Below are positions 4,769-29,586 of a DNA stretch of 64,000 nucleotides, in pieces. The notes under the pieces were generated by a model, which was given only the letters and a program-made list of their open reading frames with translations, had not been told where the DNA came from and did no database searches. The position numbers and the translations under genes were made by a program. The DNA comes from a virus: IMG/VR virus record IMGVR_UViG_3300026488_000010; one strand, written 5' to 3'. Positions within the stretch are counted from its first letter, which is position 1. Every line of letters starts with the position of its first letter.

Positions 4769-4780
4769 TTAGTATTTGTT
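4769..4780 (-). promoter_or_regulatory. Late-promoter-like motif (AACA-aatact-AA variant)
   Basis: Member of the recurrent AACA-N6-(T)A motif, 21 nt before the baseplate start codon. Confidence 0.5.
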
Positions 4781-4790
4781 CCGACAAGAA

Positions 4791-4822
4791 ATTTCCCTAA
4801 GGCTTATAAGCCTTAGGGAAAT
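4791..4822 (-). terminator. Perfect 32-bp palindrome, probable terminator of the 4.8-9.2 kb operon
   Basis: atttccctaaggctta|taagccttagggaaat, directly after the holin-like stop codon. Confidence 0.6.
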
Positions 4823-4834
4823 GTTTATATATCG

Positions 4835-5167
4835 TTATTTTCCTCGAATTGCGGCGATAGTTCCACCACCAAAATAAAAGGATGTGACAGCTAGCATAAC
4901 TAACCCAACGTTAAACGCTGTAGCTATAGTTATTAGCTCTTTTATACTAATACCGTAATATTGATATACCAACGATAAAATAATTGCAAATATGTATGTT
5001 ATTATGATGATTAGCGCCATTAGTCTTTGTGCAATTTTAAATGATGTGTACTCTTCAAATAGTGATACAATCATTTCTTCTTTTTTTTCATCTGATATTT
5101 TCAATTCCTGAATAACTTTAAGTTGTTCAGTCATATATTTTTTTGTACCAAATATTTTATTAAACAT
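4835..5167 (-). CDS. Holin-like membrane protein (3TM/GTA-holin-like)
   Basis: 110 aa with hydrophobic helices, SFKIAQRLMAL motif and C-terminal FYFGGG...IRGK, resembling the 'holin of 3TMs' family. Confidence 0.5.
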   Translation of the reverse strand: MFNKIFGTKKYMTEQLKVIQELKISDEKKEEMIVSLFEEYTSFKIAQRLMALIIIITYIFAIILSLVYQYYGISIKELITIATAFNVGLVMLAVTSFYFGGGTIAAIRGK

Positions 5168-5178
5168 TATAATCCTTT

Positions 5179-6375
5179 TTAAAATAGATAATCTAATCTA
5201 AAGTATATTTTATGGGCATATGTATTAACATCTTTTACGGAGTTACCACCTTTCAATTTTTGATAATCAAATATTGAATATTTATAATTTATAGATGCTT
5301 TAATCTTTGGAGTAATAGTGATACCAGTATAAACCTTATATGATGATCCTAAATCTCCCCATGAATATTCATTAGTTGATATTTCATCTGTTACTAATGA
5401 TACCCAGTACTTCGAGGCATAAAAGAATTCAGTACCAATAAATAATTCGTTATTTATTATATCTATATCCTTTTTTGCTCCCAATAATAATGAGTGTCCT
5501 AATCTATCATCTTCTTTTGAAATTTTAACACCTGGTGCAGATACCTCATGTCCTGATGTTAATCTTGTACCATCAAATTTTGTCTGACTCAATGCAAATA
5601 TACCATAGAATAAGTTTCCTGAATATTCACGATTATCATATACATATCCAACACCAATGTTATCCAATGTTCCTAATTCTGCATGCTCTACTGATGACAA
5701 ACTTTCAACTGTATCGTAAATTATCTTTGCATGTGATGCATTAAATCTTACAGTGTGTTTATCATAAGTTTTTGATGCAAATAAAAACGATATATCCGAA
5801 CCTTCTTGTGAGTGCTCATATCGATTAGTTGGTACCAACTCTAGCCTTGTATGTGACGCATATCCTACTTGTATTTTATAATCATTAATATATTTTGTAT
5901 AAAATATACCTGGCATGTTTATATAATATAAAGTCATTAATCCTTCTGATTGTCTTAGACCCGATTTGGTATATTCTGAAAATGCACCTTTCTTAAAAGA
6001 TAATATACCAATTGTTGCGATATCATTTTCTGTTAATTTATAATTAATAGTTGCTTCCGAAACCTCAACAAAATGTTGCTCAAGGACGGGTGCATTATAT
6101 GTTCTCGAGTATCTATCAGTAATAGCAGTAAATGCTACTGCTGATGTCATATAAAAATTATCCATATAATAATCATTATATGATGTTAGATGTATATTAT
6201 ATCCTGAACCTTCTAAGTCTTGTTCACTGTTAGTTTTATAGCAAAATTTGTTTCCAGTTGCGGAACCAGTTACAAATTCAAAATAATTTGTATTTTTATA
6301 ATCATTAGCAAAACTAATTGACGATAGAAATGTTAAGTTTGCCAAGGTTATAAAAACTAAAAATAATTTTTTCAT
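5179..6375 (-). CDS. Outer-membrane beta-barrel protein/porin (DUF3373-like)
   Basis: Signal peptide (MKKLFLVFITLANLTFLSSISFA), alternating amphipathic strands, and C-terminal beta-signal YFRLDYLF ending in Phe. Confidence 0.7.
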   Translation of the reverse strand: MKKLFLVFITLANLTFLSSISFANDYKNTNYFEFVTGSATGNKFCYKTNSEQDLEGSGYNIHLTSYNDYYMDNFYMTSAVAFTAITDRYSRTYNAPVLEQHFVEVSEATINYKLTENDIATIGILSFKKGAFSEYTKSGLRQSEGLMTLYYINMPGIFYTKYINDYKIQVGYASHTRLELVPTNRYEHSQEGSDISFLFASKTYDKHTVRFNASHAKIIYDTVESLSSVEHAELGTLDNIGVGYVYDNREYSGNLFYGIFALSQTKFDGTRLTSGHEVSAPGVKISKEDDRLGHSLLLGAKKDIDIINNELFIGTEFFYASKYWVSLVTDEISTNEYSWGDLGSSYKVYTGITITPKIKASINYKYSIFDYQKLKGGNSVKDVNTYAHKIYFRLDYLF

Positions 6376-6695
6376 TTTTTAACTCCTATCCCTCTTGTTA
6401 ATTTGTCAATGTTAAATCCTTTGCTGATTAAACATTGACCTACAATTTTTTTATCATATATTGAAATATCTTTTATATATAATGATAACTGATCATTATT
6501 TATTGTTCGCTTCCAACCTCGTATCGATCTAATTGACGGATCAATATCATATTTCTTCATCATCTTATCACATCTATTTGCAACAGCGTAATAAGATTCA
6601 ATTCTTCCATCAGCATATGAATCAGCATTTAATGTTATTGATGTCATTGATAATGTGAATATTATATTAGCGATTATAAAAAATAATTTCTTCAT
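6372..6695 (-). CDS. Small exported/periplasmic protein with two cysteines
   Basis: 107 aa; signal peptide ending LNA-D; 4-bp overlap with the porin gene. Confidence 0.6.
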   Translation of the reverse strand: MKKLFFIIANIIFTLSMTSITLNADSYADGRIESYYAVANRCDKMMKKYDIDPSIRSIRGWKRTINNDQLSLYIKDISIYDKKIVGQCLISKGFNIDKLTRGIGVKK

Positions 6696-6722
6696 TTGTG
6701 CCTCTCCTACTCCTAATTTTTC

Positions 6723-8054
6723 CTATTTTTTTATTGCTCTCTCAGCTGGTATAATAATTTCAAATACAGTACCATTTGATGAAGTTTCTCTTAATTGTAA
6801 ATCACCATTGTTTTCACGTAATAATTCTTTATTTAGATATAAGCCTACTCCACGAGCATTTTTATTTTGTTCATTTTTTGATTTAAAATTAAATGTCTTT
6901 TTAATCATTAATATTCTATCATTTAACCAACCTTGTGAATCCTGAACAAACGACTCACCCATATCATTCTTAGATGTATAATATTCTCTAAAAATATCGT
7001 TGTATTTAGATGGCTCTAATGCTAACCCTGTATCTGGGTCGCGCAATCCTGTTCCATTATCAACAATAAATATGTGTAAATTTTCAGATATATCATTATA
7101 TTTACATTGAATATTAATTCTAGTCGCAGATGCTTCTAATGAGTTTCGACAATGATTTGAAACAACATTTAATAAATCGCCATTTTTTAAATTATTTAAT
7201 CCATGTTTAAGTTTGAAGTTTTTAAAAGAATTATCAATATCAATTTTAAAATTTGAGGCTTTATATATAGACATTGAATTTGCACTATAACTAATAATAT
7301 CCATTATTGTTTTATTGCCATTACTATATTTAAGATTCTTAAAATTACTCATACGCTGCAACACTGTATCTATCTGTTCAATACTTGAATATATTAATCC
7401 AAAATCAAAATAATAATAATTTGAACATTTTTCACATGGTATAACTTGTTCTTCCATTAATATTTCTAATTGTTTTATATTTCCTTGAATGATTGCAACA
7501 GGTGTATTTAATTCATGGTGTATGTTTTCAGTCAGTATTTGCATATTCTTTTCTCTTAGCGAATTTGATGTGCTCATCATATCCAACATCTTGCGTTTAC
7601 GCTCTTTGAAATCTATCATTATATATGCTAATGTAAACACTATTAAAAATAGGCCTATAATTCGCACATAACCCATCAATACTTCGCTGATCAACTCAGA
7701 GGTGTCTAAGACTGCGAATATATTATACTCTACTTCATACGCGACGATATTAAAGTCATCTGTTATAAATTCAGCTGGTACAATATAATCTGATCGTTTT
7801 AATATGCCATCTTGTAACACATATCGTGAATCATTAATTATACCAATTTCAGTACAAGAAACTACAGCACATAAGTGCTGTAAATCCAATTCATTATATT
7901 CTTCAATTGTTTTAGTAATCGTTTTACTTGCATTTTCTTGATGAATTTTGTTGATCGTGTAAAAGTTTTTATATAATACGAAACATATTAAACATATATA
8001 AAAGATAGTAAGAGTAAGATATTTTAGAATTGATCGTTTATTTAGATCACTCAT
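6723..8054 (-). CDS. Membrane sensor histidine kinase
   Basis: Two TM segments; H-box ENIHHELNTPVAIIQG; N-box NHCRNSLEA; G1 IVDNGTG; F-box IFREYYTSK; G2 RGVGLYLNKELL; terminal GTVFEIIIP. Confidence 0.9.
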   Translation of the reverse strand: MSDLNKRSILKYLTLTIFYICLICFVLYKNFYTINKIHQENASKTITKTIEEYNELDLQHLCAVVSCTEIGIINDSRYVLQDGILKRSDYIVPAEFITDDFNIVAYEVEYNIFAVLDTSELISEVLMGYVRIIGLFLIVFTLAYIMIDFKERKRKMLDMMSTSNSLREKNMQILTENIHHELNTPVAIIQGNIKQLEILMEEQVIPCEKCSNYYYFDFGLIYSSIEQIDTVLQRMSNFKNLKYSNGNKTIMDIISYSANSMSIYKASNFKIDIDNSFKNFKLKHGLNNLKNGDLLNVVSNHCRNSLEASATRINIQCKYNDISENLHIFIVDNGTGLRDPDTGLALEPSKYNDIFREYYTSKNDMGESFVQDSQGWLNDRILMIKKTFNFKSKNEQNKNARGVGLYLNKELLRENNGDLQLRETSSNGTVFEIIIPAERAIKK

Positions 8055-8710
8055 AATAAATCTTTGTCCATAAATTCTTGAATAGTTGAACCTAATGCTT
8101 CAACTCTATTACCATTTTTATTTATCACATGTTTATATACATGTTGTTCTTCACCCTTGTGTATCAATAGTTTTGTTTCATCTATTTTTACATCGAAAAA
8201 ACTTTCAAACTTTTTAATAAATTTAAATATTTCAGGATTATGTCGATTCAAGGTATGTCCGGTTACGAATCTGATTACACAATCAGGATTATATTTCTTT
8301 AAAATTATAGCAATATCAACTCCATCATATTCAACGCCTTCGATAACACCACCAAGTGTTATATCAAGTAATGCTATATCAATTTTTATATCTTCATTTT
8401 CTAAAAATTGTTTTACAGTAAACCCTGCAAATGATCCAGTACTCAATATAATATTAAATGTTTTATCTATGTCACAACATTGAACGCGTTTTAATTCATC
8501 TTTAATCAGTAAAGCCATTCCTTCAAAATCATCCATGATTAGAATGTTTTTTTTGCTTGGATCATATGTTAATTTAGTAACTTCTGGAATAACAGTTTTA
8601 TAATCAACTTCCCCTAAATCAATAGGTGAATCATATGTCATTGCAGGATTACATAACTCTTTTGTTGTAAATAAACATTTAAATTTTCCAAATATTTTTT
8701 TAAAATTCAT
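8051..8710 (-). CDS. Response regulator receiver protein with no obvious output domain
   Basis: ILIMDD acidic pocket, IALLDITL phospho-acceptor Asp, FVTGH Thr; overlaps the kinase start by 4 bp. Confidence 0.8.
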   Translation of the reverse strand: MNFKKIFGKFKCLFTTKELCNPAMTYDSPIDLGEVDYKTVIPEVTKLTYDPSKKNILIMDDFEGMALLIKDELKRVQCCDIDKTFNIILSTGSFAGFTVKQFLENEDIKIDIALLDITLGGVIEGVEYDGVDIAIILKKYNPDCVIRFVTGHTLNRHNPEIFKFIKKFESFFDVKIDETKLLIHKGEEQHVYKHVINKNGNRVEALGSTIQEFMDKDLL

Positions 8711-9174
8711 TATTTTCCCTTTAAACTTTTTTGCACAGATTCTAATACTGATCCAGTATCTTTTGAGATCGCAGAATACGCTTCTTTATCAATCTCATAT
8801 ATACCAAACATGATAGTTATAATAAATAACCATACTCCCAATATTCTAACAGTATTCTTCCATGTCATAGCATTATATAATTTAGTGCTCCAGGTACTAT
8901 GCTTCTTATTCTCAATTATCATTTTATTAATTGTTTCTGTTTTGATTTGTAATGCTTTATCAAGCATCTGAACAAACTGTTTTTTATTATGTTTATTCGT
9001 CATTTGAAATTCATTATATATCAGTACTAACAATTCATATGTGCTTTCGTCATGTTCTTTTACTTTAATGAAATAGCTCATTAAATCTTGTTGTTCAAAA
9101 TTTGAATTTGTATAATTAAGTATTTCTTGACGTAGCTCAATTAACATTTGTTTCATTCTAATATAGTCTTCCAT
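8710..9174 (-). CDS. Hypothetical membrane protein (N-terminal helical domain, C-terminal TM helix)
   Basis: 154 aa, TM ILGVWLFIITIMFGIYEI, AAGGAG RBS; first gene of the operon. Confidence 0.6.
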   Translation of the reverse strand: MEDYIRMKQMLIELRQEILNYTNSNFEQQDLMSYFIKVKEHDESTYELLVLIYNEFQMTNKHNKKQFVQMLDKALQIKTETINKMIIENKKHSTWSTKLYNAMTWKNTVRILGVWLFIITIMFGIYEIDKEAYSAISKDTGSVLESVQKSLKGK

Positions 9175-9186
9175 GAATCTCCTTTA

Positions 9187-9198
9187 TAATATTTTGTT
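9187..9198 (-). promoter_or_regulatory. Late-promoter-like motif AACA-aaatat-TA
   Basis: Exact AACA-N6-TA, 13 nt upstream of the ATG at 9174. Confidence 0.55.
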
Positions 9199-9262
9199 TT
9201 AAATTGTATATTATATGGATTATAATATACAATTTAAAACAAGATGCATCTTGTTTTAAATT
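9194..9262. terminator. Two overlapping inverted repeats (22-bp stem hairpin and 32-bp perfect palindrome)
   Basis: 9194-9215 pairs perfectly with 9221-9242 (5-nt loop). 9231-9262, aatttaaaacaagatg|catcttgttttaaatt, is a perfect palindrome sharing 9231-9242. Confidence 0.65.
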
Positions 9263-10188
9263 TTACCGTTTCGAACATTCTTCATATCACGCATGAACTC
9301 TTCAAAAAAATTACACTTATCTTGATCAGAATCATTTTCATAAAATTTATAAATCATATCATTTGATTTATAACTTTGATTAATTGTTGTTAATGCATTT
9401 TTACCTCTATCACCAATTATCTGCTTAAATGGTAAATTGATCGGAGATACACCCATAATCTTAATTAACAATCTAATGTTTGTTGTAAAAGGAGCATACA
9501 CTGCTACCCATACAGCATTAAAATATGGTACTTCAATAAAGTCATCTGCATCATGATTCTCATCTTGTTGAATAGGAGGCATTTTAATGAATCCTTTTTT
9601 CAAAGCATCTATATATTTGAACCAGGCTTCATGATATCTAAAGATATCATTATTATAATTCTCTAAAAAATTGATACTAAAATCACCAGCGAAGTGAACC
9701 TTAGATGCATAATTCAAGTTCCGATTCTTTCCAGATACTGATTCATATTCAATGTTTATTTGTGGTATGTCTATATCTGTTGCTAATTGGCCAAATTGTA
9801 GAAGCACACGTTTAAATCCTGTTTCTTTGAATGTGCTCAAATCACTGTTTTTATAAGTATATGAATCATCTAATTTTGCAATATCTTTATCTTCAATTTC
9901 CGATAATGTTTGTACCCATGGGCCAGACACCATATGAATATAATAGTAACCATTAATATGTGGCGACATTTCGCCATATTTTGTAGTTACCTGTTCATTC
10001 ATAAATTTTAAGATATCAGAATTTCTAAGGCCATCAACCTTAGAATCCATCATTTTGTTAATTAATTTTTTATGAGTATTGTTCTCTACTGTTTTTGCTT
10101 CTGGTGAATCAGGTAATTCAATGTCTGAAATATTTCCTGATTTTGATACTCTTAATTTTTGCTGGTCTGTAGACTCAATTGTTTTCAT
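9256..10188 (-). CDS. Tail-tube-fold protein (tube paralog / baseplate-tube junction)
   Basis: HINGYYYIHM...ATDIDIPQINIEYE...FSINFLENYNNDIFRYHEAW parallels motifs in the tube gene at 18333-19112. Confidence 0.55.
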   Translation of the reverse strand: MKTIESTDQQKLRVSKSGNISDIELPDSPEAKTVENNTHKKLINKMMDSKVDGLRNSDILKFMNEQVTTKYGEMSPHINGYYYIHMVSGPWVQTLSEIEDKDIAKLDDSYTYKNSDLSTFKETGFKRVLLQFGQLATDIDIPQINIEYESVSGKNRNLNYASKVHFAGDFSINFLENYNNDIFRYHEAWFKYIDALKKGFIKMPPIQQDENHDADDFIEVPYFNAVWVAVYAPFTTNIRLLIKIMGVSPINLPFKQIIGDRGKNALTTINQSYKSNDMIYKFYENDSDQDKCNFFEEFMRDMKNVRNGKI

Positions 10189-27996: not shown

Positions 27997-29526
27997 CTAC
28001 ATTGTTTTAAAATATTTATAATTACCAGAATCATAAATAACTCGATAACCGTTAATTAACATATTTTGTGTAGCAGTTTTAGATTGATCAAATATCAAAC
28101 CTAATTTTTCTATTTTATGTTTTTGATATTTGAGTCTTGATTCAACGCGATCTTTAATATAAAACATATTTGGAGGCGAGATATTAATAAATTCAAAACC
28201 TATAGTATTATATAAATTTCCTTTGCTCCATCTACGATTTGCATACGAAACCATTAAATTGTATGAATAATTATTATCATAATATTTTAACATTTTGCTT
28301 GCTCCACCTACTACAACAGTATTAAGTTTTGAACACATTCTATATAGTTCAACATCTGCATCTTTATCCATTCTCGGTTTTCCAAATGTCATTATGCTTA
28401 CTAATTCATCATTATAATATAAACCTATTTTTGTCGCAGCATTTATATATCCTTGTAAATGATTCATTTTTAAAAAATCTCTTGCTTCAGAAATAGAGAC
28501 CACTTTAGTTTGACATTTTCTAGCATGTATTTTCTTTGATAATCCAAAAGCGTTTTTTAGAATACTTTTCCATAATATCTTATTTTCTATCCATTCATTT
28601 TCAAATATATGAAATAATTGATAACCATGTTTCAAACACTCTTCCGTTTTAATTAAATGTCGCTTACTTTGATAATATTTATCACCTTGGTTCTGATTGA
28701 CGTTATTTGTTCCAAATGAATGCCAATACAAACCATTAAATTCAATTGCGATTTTATGTTCTGGAATTAATATATCAATTTCTAAAGGTTTAATTAAAGT
28801 TCTATCACTTTGGATAATATCGATTCCAAGTGATAGAATGTATTCTGCAATCTCTTGTTCATATGATGAAACCAACCTCTTTTTATATGATATCCCAAAA
28901 TATGCCATTCGTTTATTAATATTTGAACGTGATATATTAAAAAAACTGATCAACCCATTTATGTCTAAAATATCATTTTTTAAAAAATGTTTAATTATGT
29001 ACTCTTTATTATATTTATCTATATTTTTAAAATGTTTATATGTTGATGAACAGGCTCCATATTTTGACATATTTGTCGCTCTAACCTTTTTTCTAATTTC
29101 GTTATTCTTCATTGGATTGTCAACACCATATTTTATTATATTTGTTTCTTTTGTTTTTTTAACTTTTTGTTTAATTTTATTATCATCCCAAGTATTTGAG
29201 ATCTGACGTCTAATTTTAGAATCTTTGTTTCGACATCTGACAGAACAGAACATTCTAAAGATATTTTTATCATTATCAAACTTAACATTGTTTTGACATT
29301 CAACATTGTTACATTTATGTATAACTTTGCTTTCATATTTTTGAAGAATATATAAATAGATCCTTGCTTTATCTGAATATTCTGCCGGTGTTGATATATG
29401 AATATCATTTAATAGTTTATCAGATATGTTTTTAATATTGATTTTTCGTATTTTTAAAACGGTGTCTCTTGTGTCTATACTTGATGTATAACTTCTAATT
29501 AATTGTATAATTTGTGTAATTTGCAT
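27997..29526 (-). mobile_element. Free-standing Hef-like homing endonuclease (Zn-ribbon/helical repeats, DUF559/Vsr-like nuclease, GNAT/Mom-like C-domain)
   Basis: CNNVEC...FCSVRC; TNIIKYGVDNPM repeats; YEQEI...LEIDILIP..IAIEFNGLYWHS...KTEECLKHGYQLFHIFENEW; FLKMNHLQG...GGASKML...SYANRRWS. ATG 29526 has an AAGGA RBS (ORF track starts at 29556). Confidence 0.75.
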
Positions 29527-29586
29527 ACTGGTCCTTTTGCGATTATTTTTGACCATAAACTATTCCGATACAGTTTAAAAAAGCCG

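Follow-up and report, generated by a model that had tools for sequence, protein, structure and literature searches.

Six closely packed genes on the minus strand of a 64,000-nucleotide stretch of viral DNA (IMG/VR record IMGVR_UViG_3300026488_000010; this whole stretch is called the window below) include a sensor histidine kinase and a stand-alone receiver that belong to a distinct two-component lineage, all of whose members sampled so far lie on phage-like contigs. Bacteria sense their surroundings chiefly through two-component systems, and the usual view of phages is that they exploit or block those of their hosts and do not have a full set of their own. In the present family, a kinase-receiver pair that is complete, with intact catalytic residues, is found in hundreds of diverged clusters on large phage contigs (~100-300 kb), with a receiver that the Pfam receiver model misses. 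Judging from the sequences and their gene neighbourhoods, we favour the idea that the pair would act as an envelope-sensing phosphorelay forming part of, or wired to, the control of phage lysis, and we put the probability of this at roughly 45%. Even without the lysis link, the family stands as a clear example of a signalling lineage specific to viruses.

The window belongs to a 286,633-bp contig from a hydrothermal-vent metagenome. The cassette and its boundaries, in the direction of transcription, are as follows:

9191..9265, minus strand: upstream boundary, two interlocked palindromes (arms 9191-9215/9221-9245 and 9228-9246/9247-9265)
9187..9198, minus strand: promoter-like AACAAAATATTA, a degenerate copy of the late-type AACAAATANTWA, then the ribosome-binding site AAAGGAG
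8710..9174, minus strand: g1, 154 amino acids (aa), a protein with a single transmembrane segment and no Pfam or PHROG family
8051..8710, minus strand: g2, 219 aa, stand-alone receiver domain (active-site quintet and predicted fold)
6723..8054, minus strand: sensor histidine kinase, 443 aa (HATPase_c and catalytic boxes)
6372..6695, minus strand: g4, 107 aa, exported soluble protein with two cysteines (signal peptide, no lipobox)
5179..6375, minus strand: g5, 398 aa, predicted DUF3373-type outer-membrane beta-barrel (Pfam match, signal peptide, C-terminal ...DYLF)
4835..5167, minus strand: g6, 110 aa, protein with two transmembrane segments (phrog_9646; holin-like, judging by the genes around its homologues)
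4791..4822, no strand assigned: perfect 32-bp palindrome (16+16 nt), an intrinsic-terminator-like hairpin with a T-rich tail after it, ending the unit

The original prediction, made from the letters of the window, had described six tightly coupled minus-strand genes lying between a late-type AACA-N6-TA motif and a 32-bp palindrome, and the layout is as described. All six open reading frames are confirmed on the minus strand between 4835 and 9174, and they either overlap or are separated by very short gaps: TAATG at the g1/g2 junction, ATGA at the g2/kinase and g4/barrel junctions, and intergenic gaps of 27 and 11 nt at the remaining two. The downstream palindrome is perfect, was flagged by the terminator scan too, and is followed by the next late-type motif (4769-4780). 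Of the two upstream palindromes, the second sits after the stop of a tube-like gene and resembles the terminator of that gene. The late-type motif itself stands in part. Its strict consensus, AACAAATANTWA, occurs 7 times in the window against 1.1 expected, in all seven cases on the minus strand, and copies of it precede the sheath, the capsid-like (major capsid protein-like) and the 785-aa genes. The AACAAAATATTA ahead of g1 fits the loose AACA-N6-TA pattern but not this strict consensus, agreeing with it at ~10 of 13 positions, and a late promoter ahead of g1 is a plausible prediction.

The receiver had been proposed from the letters alone, and the proposal holds in spite of a Response_reg (PF00072) match of only 15.2 bits (E=0.024), which is below the Pfam cut-off of 30.2. 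The g2 family comprises 94 clusters on contigs of up to 306 kb, none of the 94 with a precomputed Pfam call, and in these 94 sequences the five active-site residues are nearly or fully invariant (D60 97%, D61 100%, D116 100%, T150 97%, K198 100%). An AlphaFold2 model of g2 (predicted local distance difference test score, pLDDT, 89.8) has the (beta-alpha)5 fold of CheY. With this model Foldseek returned 141 matches at E<=0.001, nearly all of them receivers among the matches listed, with Spo0F, CheY-like and DesR receivers at a probability of 1.0 and a template-modelling score of 0.79 over the target for Spo0F 6ifh. In its D-D-D-T-K quintet and its fold, g2 thus resembles the single-domain receivers CheY, Spo0F and DivK. 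It differs from classical receivers in falling below the Pfam cut-off, in a beta-hairpin insert and in conserved motifs of its own: E127, D129, G130 and D132, and, on or near helix 4, H152, N155, N158, P159, K167 and F168. It also has an N-terminal extension of ~50 aa and no output domain, neither DNA-binding nor enzymatic, and would therefore act by protein contacts. Should the cassette control lysis timing, g2 would define a new receiver subfamily with protein-protein contact as its output. A complex prediction of g2 with the cytoplasmic domain of g1 (residues 1-108) scored 0.00, which gives no verdict either way.

The kinase is complete, as had been claimed. Its HATPase_c match (36.2 bits) is above the Pfam cut-off of 26.4; HisKA, at 20.5 bits, is below its cut-off of 26.9, but the H-box HHELNTP is nonetheless present. 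The protein runs from a first transmembrane segment through a periplasmic domain of ~95 aa and a second transmembrane segment to a dimerization and histidine phosphotransfer (DHp) domain with H180 and a catalytic domain with N304, D332-x-G-x-G, F355 and G402-x-G404, and alignments show each of the H, N, G1, F and G2 boxes. Among 130 representatives H180, P185 and N304 are conserved in 100%, E181, D332, G334, G336, G402 and G404 in 99%, and F355 in 90%; the two cysteines of a periplasmic C62-x4-C67 site are conserved in 86-87%. A profile built from four cassette kinases and run against 1.84 billion representatives recovered 399 at E<=1e-3, 114 of them at E<=1e-30. Because there are only these 399 matches, and most of them are full-length, we consider the kinase a discrete family and not a generic kinase match. 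The same profile found no match among the sequences of the PDB.

In its succession of transmembrane segment, putative PDC-like sensor, second transmembrane segment, DHp and catalytic domain, the kinase is built like those of bacterial two-component systems of the PhoQ, CitA, DcuS, CpxA and WalK type, and the overlap of the kinase and receiver genes is a further point in common. The model of its sensor domain (residues 30-128; pLDDT 89.6) is made up of a long N-terminal helix, a sheet of five strands and a helix at the C-terminus. With Foldseek nothing came up for it below E 0.2. An exhaustive comparison with VIA-align ranked PctA, WalK, CpxA, TlpB, CitA and CusS highly, at Z 5-7, and PDC/Cache/PAS-type sensors make up the majority of the top 50 structural matches; Z values below 8 are not decisive alone. 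These comparisons are suggestive of a PDC/Cache-like periplasmic sensor. What separates the cassette from the classical systems is that it is encoded by a lytic-type jumbo phage and coupled to g1, often also to g4 and the barrel.

We sampled the cassette in ~14 lineages, and every sampled context is phage-like. A scan of IMG/VR with a single kinase sequence gave no match; profile-based scans recovered the relatives. The conserved core is g1-g2, usually with the kinase. The gene for g1 lies immediately upstream of g2 in 12 of 14 lineages (it is unrecognised in L033 and L034), and a kinase is encoded with the g1-g2 core in all lineages but one, L017, which has g1-g2 alone. The distant members too pair a g2-like gene with a kinase in phage contexts. 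Beyond the core the arrangements vary:

g1-g2-kinase-g4-barrel: the window lineage, L006, L009, L019, L020/L031, L030 and L032
g1-g2-kinase alone: L022 and L029
g4 without the barrel: L021 and L028
two canonical receiver-only proteins replacing g4 and the barrel, beside PhoH, SmpB and ribonucleotide reductase (RNR) genes: L010 and L015

The contig of L022 is labelled as a Sphaerochaeta metagenome-assembled genome, but it is plainly phage and carries the same flanking virion genes. The original prediction had treated the six genes as one unit of host-type genes, and on both points we come to a different view. As a unit the six are not conserved: g1-g2(-kinase) is the core, g4 and the barrel are accessory, and g6 is confined to one lineage. 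As to origin, the genes do not look recently captured; they form a large, divergent family found, in this sampling, on phage-like contigs.

It is very improbable that the block came from host or prophage DNA as a contaminant, arose by misassembly or is a passenger in decay. All the large open reading frames of the window lie on one strand, with sheath and major-head PHROG matches among them, and the GC content of the cassette (0.27-0.29) is that of its flanks (0.26-0.30). In Logan contigs of the source run the depth is 44.8, 46.1 and 46.5 across both cassette boundaries. The point in favour of an assembly fault is that these contigs break at both bounding palindromes (9233-9260 and 4793-4820), leaving the linkage across them in the source run to 28-bp overlaps in the Logan assembly. 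The depth is nevertheless equal on either side of each break, and the identical linkage recurs in independent assemblies from other samples, where the cassette is flanked by homologues of the same two virion genes, the tube-like one (310 aa) and the 785-aa one; these assemblies are L001, with 94% nucleotide identity, L003/L004 and L007, a contig of IMG/VR. Contamination or misassembly is very unlikely because GC and depth match the flanks and the linkage recurs in this way, and the coverage or linkage break that would have spoken for it is not upheld. Repeats are taken to account for two short-sided joints in the source-run contigs, 6380->10191 and 7403->9208 (side 21 nt). Of the palindromic element upstream of g1, 69 bp (9188-9256) are missing in a relative from run X2. 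Decay is countered by purifying selection, with ratios of nonsynonymous to synonymous substitution rates (dN/dS) of 0.07-0.27 for g1, g2, the kinase, the barrel and g6 (0.18 for g1, 0.10 for the kinase and 0.11 for the barrel), and by the invariance of the catalytic residues. When 185,579 GTDB species genomes were scanned for patterns from the profiles of the barrel and the receiver, no confirmed relative emerged, which speaks against a contaminant; the absence from these genomes is weakly supported, because each scan used just one or two patterns. The block, the kinase and the 785-aa neighbour had no match by blastn or tblastn in 50,697 deposited phage genomes, and the phage group that carries the cassette is uncultured. 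PADLOC found no defence-system family.

The lysis link is carried mainly by the neighbours of g6 and of the cassette. Besides its charged N-terminal domain, g6 has two hydrophobic transmembrane segments and matches phrog_9646, a family annotated as of unknown function. Its full-length homologues in this family come from small marine phages, namely Marinomonas phage P12026 and the Roseobacter phages CRP-143, CRP-821, CRP-822 and CRP-831, and all share the invariant motifs KIFG, PFK-AQR and FYFGGG with g6. The homologue directly adjoins an N-acetylmuramoyl-L-alanine amidase in P12026, an M15 peptidase in CRP-143 and a glycoside hydrolase family 108 (GH108) enzyme in CRP-821, CRP-822 and CRP-831. 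One membrane-protein family beside three unrelated endolysin types is a classic holin signature, and we therefore regard the g6 family as holin-like. In the P12026 and CRP phages these genes abut endolysins, whereas g6 itself abuts the barrel and a virion gene. In addition, 5 of the ~14 lineages have an endolysin-type gene no more than three genes away from the cassette, with three enzyme families in differing arrangements:

L017: GH108 with PG_binding_3, directly before g1
L029: Peptidase_M15_3/phrog_894, directly before g1
L033: M15_4, with one small gene in between
L032: M15_3/phrog_894, with two genes in between
L019: GH108/phrog_315, two genes after the barrel

In a genome of ~300 genes with a few such enzymes, one would be expected this close by chance in only a few percent of cases, by a rough estimate. 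The original suggestion of a link to lysis is supported by these two sets of neighbourhoods, the g6 homologues and the five lineages; control of lysis timing is a further step that we infer.

Several observations weigh against a role in lysis. Most lineages have no lysis gene near the cassette: in L008 and L009 it stands beside head genes and in L010 and L015 beside PhoH, SmpB and RNR, with at most a weak M15_4 match nearby, as seen in L010. The lineages are incompletely independent, several of them sharing the slot between the tube-like and 785-aa genes, and therefore part of the lysis adjacency could be inherited. GH108 queries found no endolysin in the 64-kb window of the 286,633-bp contig; in the partial IMG/VR records of four relatives they had no match either, but the control genomes were likewise unmatched and the result is thus uninformative. 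As for g6, neither it nor its five homologues match any Pfam family or any curated holin family, so that the earlier holin-like label draws on the small two-transmembrane architecture and on the endolysins beside its homologues, not on family membership. It is confined to the window lineage and absent from most others; the partial L008, L009 and L010 records did not yield it.

The main rival explanation, which we think less likely, is that the cassette is instead a general envelope or environment sensor with no relation to lysis, the barrel serving as a channel for uptake or signal entry. The cue could be the redox state, nutrients or envelope stress in the vent hosts, and the phosphorylated g2 would act on a phage or host protein, tuning phage development or host physiology. 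The sensor domain appears to have a common ligand-binding fold (PDC/Cache), the periplasmic C-x4-C, conserved in most representatives, is compatible with redox sensing, and the scarcity of lysis genes in most lineages fits as well. So do L010 and L015, in which the cassette lies beside PhoH, SmpB and RNR genes and has two extra canonical receivers in place of g4 and the barrel. What such a sensor leaves unexplained is the recurrence of three endolysin families and a holin-like gene beside the cassette, and also the persistence of g1-g2 directly after an endolysin in L017, with no kinase encoded nearby.

Three side observations concern the same neighbourhoods. Small transmembrane proteins follow the cassette in L032 (8697-8900, 67 aa, two transmembrane segments and a charged C-terminus) and in L028 (12793-13041, 82 aa); they hold the position of g6, are unrelated to it in sequence and are possible alternative holins. 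A 182-aa protein with two transmembrane segments after the endolysin of L019 was considered as a g6 homologue and rejected, there being no detectable homology. In L033 a phosphohydrolase with an HD_5 domain (7439-8041) lies within a small lysis-like cluster upstream of the g2/kinase pair.

The exported part of the cassette, g4 and the barrel, is real but not obligatory. As had been proposed, g4 is a small exported protein with two cysteines: it has a signal peptide and the invariant residues C42, G60, W61, R63 and C88, three of them forming a G-W-x-R motif. The end of the signal peptide has no lipobox cysteine, and g4 as a lipoprotein was rejected. The barrel matches DUF3373 at 41.9 bits (cut-off 26.1) over residues 211-372, and PF11853 is carried by all 7 of its relatives. 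Its N-terminus, MKKLFLVFITLANLTFLSSISFA..., reads as a Sec signal peptide and its C-terminus, ...RLDYLF, ends in an invariant F398, in agreement with the beta-barrel with a Phe beta-signal expected from the letters. DUF3373 belongs in TCDB to 1.B.62, a family of putative bacterial outer-membrane pores with 18 strands (PMC4827864). The barrel resembles these pores in the Pfam match, the signal peptide and the C-terminal aromatic residue, but differs in being phage-encoded, shorter (~390 aa vs 505±71), matched only over its C-terminal 160 residues and paired with g4. At least two losses of the barrel are seen among phages closely related to barrel carriers, each with kinase and receiver intact: in L001 a 92-codon remnant is left after an internal deletion of ~0.87 kb, and in L008 a truncated gene retains 118 residues. 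In L001, g4 has a shortened C-terminus and a dN/dS of 0.44, indicating relaxed selection. Since the loss of the barrel goes with relaxed selection on g4, we take the two to be an accessory pair; and since the barrel was lost while the kinase stayed intact, it is not required for signalling. The envelope-spanning circuit of porin, periplasmic protein, kinase and receiver that had been proposed is accordingly made of real parts, the kinase and receiver being under purifying selection, but the barrel is not a necessary member of it.

Two further explanations turn on this pair. The porins that phages encode are known chiefly for parts in exclusion or conversion, and the Lc porin of lambdoid phage PA-2, which replaces or masks an outer-membrane receptor of the host, provides a model for surface remodelling or superinfection exclusion. 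On this explanation the barrel, with g4, would replace or mask the host receptor, and the two-component system would either control the barrel or react to secondary adsorption. The purifying selection on the barrel would be expected, as would the behaviour of g4 and the barrel as a pair, seen in their translational coupling and in the relaxation of g4 where the barrel is gone. The explanation is nonetheless improbable: independently lost in L001 and L008 and absent from many g1-g2-kinase lineages, the barrel cannot be the core purpose of the module, and late expression from a region of virion genes would be an odd time to start exclusion. Quite improbable, too, is that g4 and the barrel carry out the outer-membrane step of lysis as a spanin substitute, with the kinase and receiver as co-located regulators or unrelated neighbours. 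PHROG and Pfam scans of the cassette neighbours gave no spanin annotation, and in the window lineage, L019 and L032 the pair has the kinase on one side and holin-like or endolysin genes on the other. Against this, no outer-membrane disruptor is known to be a beta-barrel dependent on the beta-barrel assembly machinery, and the pair is dispensable in close relatives.

The remaining member of the core, g1, has a helical cytoplasmic N-terminal domain of ~110 aa, one transmembrane segment and a charged tail of ~25 aa. Library scans placed it in no Pfam or PHROG family, and searches of the ESM Atlas with g1 and with g4 gave no usable lead. The idea that g1 is a histidine-containing phosphotransfer (HPt) domain was rejected, as an alignment of 22 sequences has no conserved histidine.

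If the cassette is indeed an envelope-sensing relay tied to lysis, it might work as follows. Late in infection the kinase would read a periplasmic or envelope cue, possibly through its conserved C-x4-C site; where present, g4 and the barrel would be an optional front end that admits or presents an outside signal. The kinase would then autophosphorylate on H180 and pass the phosphate to D116 of g2, and the phosphorylated g2 would bind another protein, most probably g1, at its cytoplasmic domain, or else a holin such as g6. The outcome would be that the formation of the membrane hole and the release of endolysin are either delayed or triggered. A more ambitious form of this proposal, about which we are doubtful, credits jumbo phages of a large and ancient family with a His-Asp relay of their own, made up of a PDC-sensor kinase, the atypical stand-alone receiver and g1. 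This relay would gate holin action, so that the virus itself would time lysis by sensing the periplasm or, by way of its own outer-membrane channel, the outside; it would be a counterpart of T4 lysis inhibition based on phosphorylation. Were lysis timing controlled by the cassette, this would offer a concrete and testable account, at the molecular level, of how lytic Gram-negative phages make decisions and would explain an outer-membrane channel in phages from sulfidic vent and wastewater communities.

In function such a relay would parallel the lysis inhibition of T4, which involves the holin T, the periplasmic antiholin RI and the cytoplasmic RIII. The proposed logic would be alike, with a periplasmic signal acting on a membrane lysis effector to delay lysis, and the genes lie among or near lysis genes. 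There is no sequence relationship, however, and His-Asp phosphotransfer is proposed here in place of the direct binding of antiholin to holin. The closest phage precedent that we found is the agr cassette (agrD, agrB, agrC) of the Clostridioides difficile phage phiCDHM1, which includes a phage-borne sensor histidine kinase thought to read a signal; no response regulator accompanies the kinase, and the cassette genes share 60-70% similarity with those of the host (PMC4124054). The present cassette, by contrast, encodes a receiver and belongs to a family without a detectable close cellular counterpart. The only receiver variant mentioned in a review of jumbo-phage genomics is a different, kinase-independent one (PMC7824862), and exact-phrase literature searches on histidine kinases or two-component systems encoded by phages yielded no papers.

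Some minor features of the cassette surroundings may be added. The PhoH-associated variants carry a phage-borne SmpB (PF01668; L015:4579-5025 and L010:3169-3615), the partner of transfer-messenger RNA, adjoining a PIN_4+PhoH gene. Just upstream of g1, an IS605-type TnpB (OrfB_IS605/Cas12f1-like_TNB) is inserted in L022 (3757-4743) and L023 (5010-6563); in L023 a Y1 transposase accompanies it, and the tube-like gene is duplicated at the TnpB insertion sites. Directly downstream of the cassette, the diverged lineages L020 (10636-12303) and L021 (9617-15431) encode RCC1/WD40_RLD-repeat proteins of 555 to >1,300 aa. Genes flanking the cassette in L008 (10296-10784) and L009 (6089-6664 and 11328-12927) start with the leader M-I/V-L-E-I-N-K. 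Finally, within the window itself, a 519-aa homing/HNH endonuclease (27997-29556; phrog_3339, E 2.5e-120) lies just downstream of the capsid-like gene.

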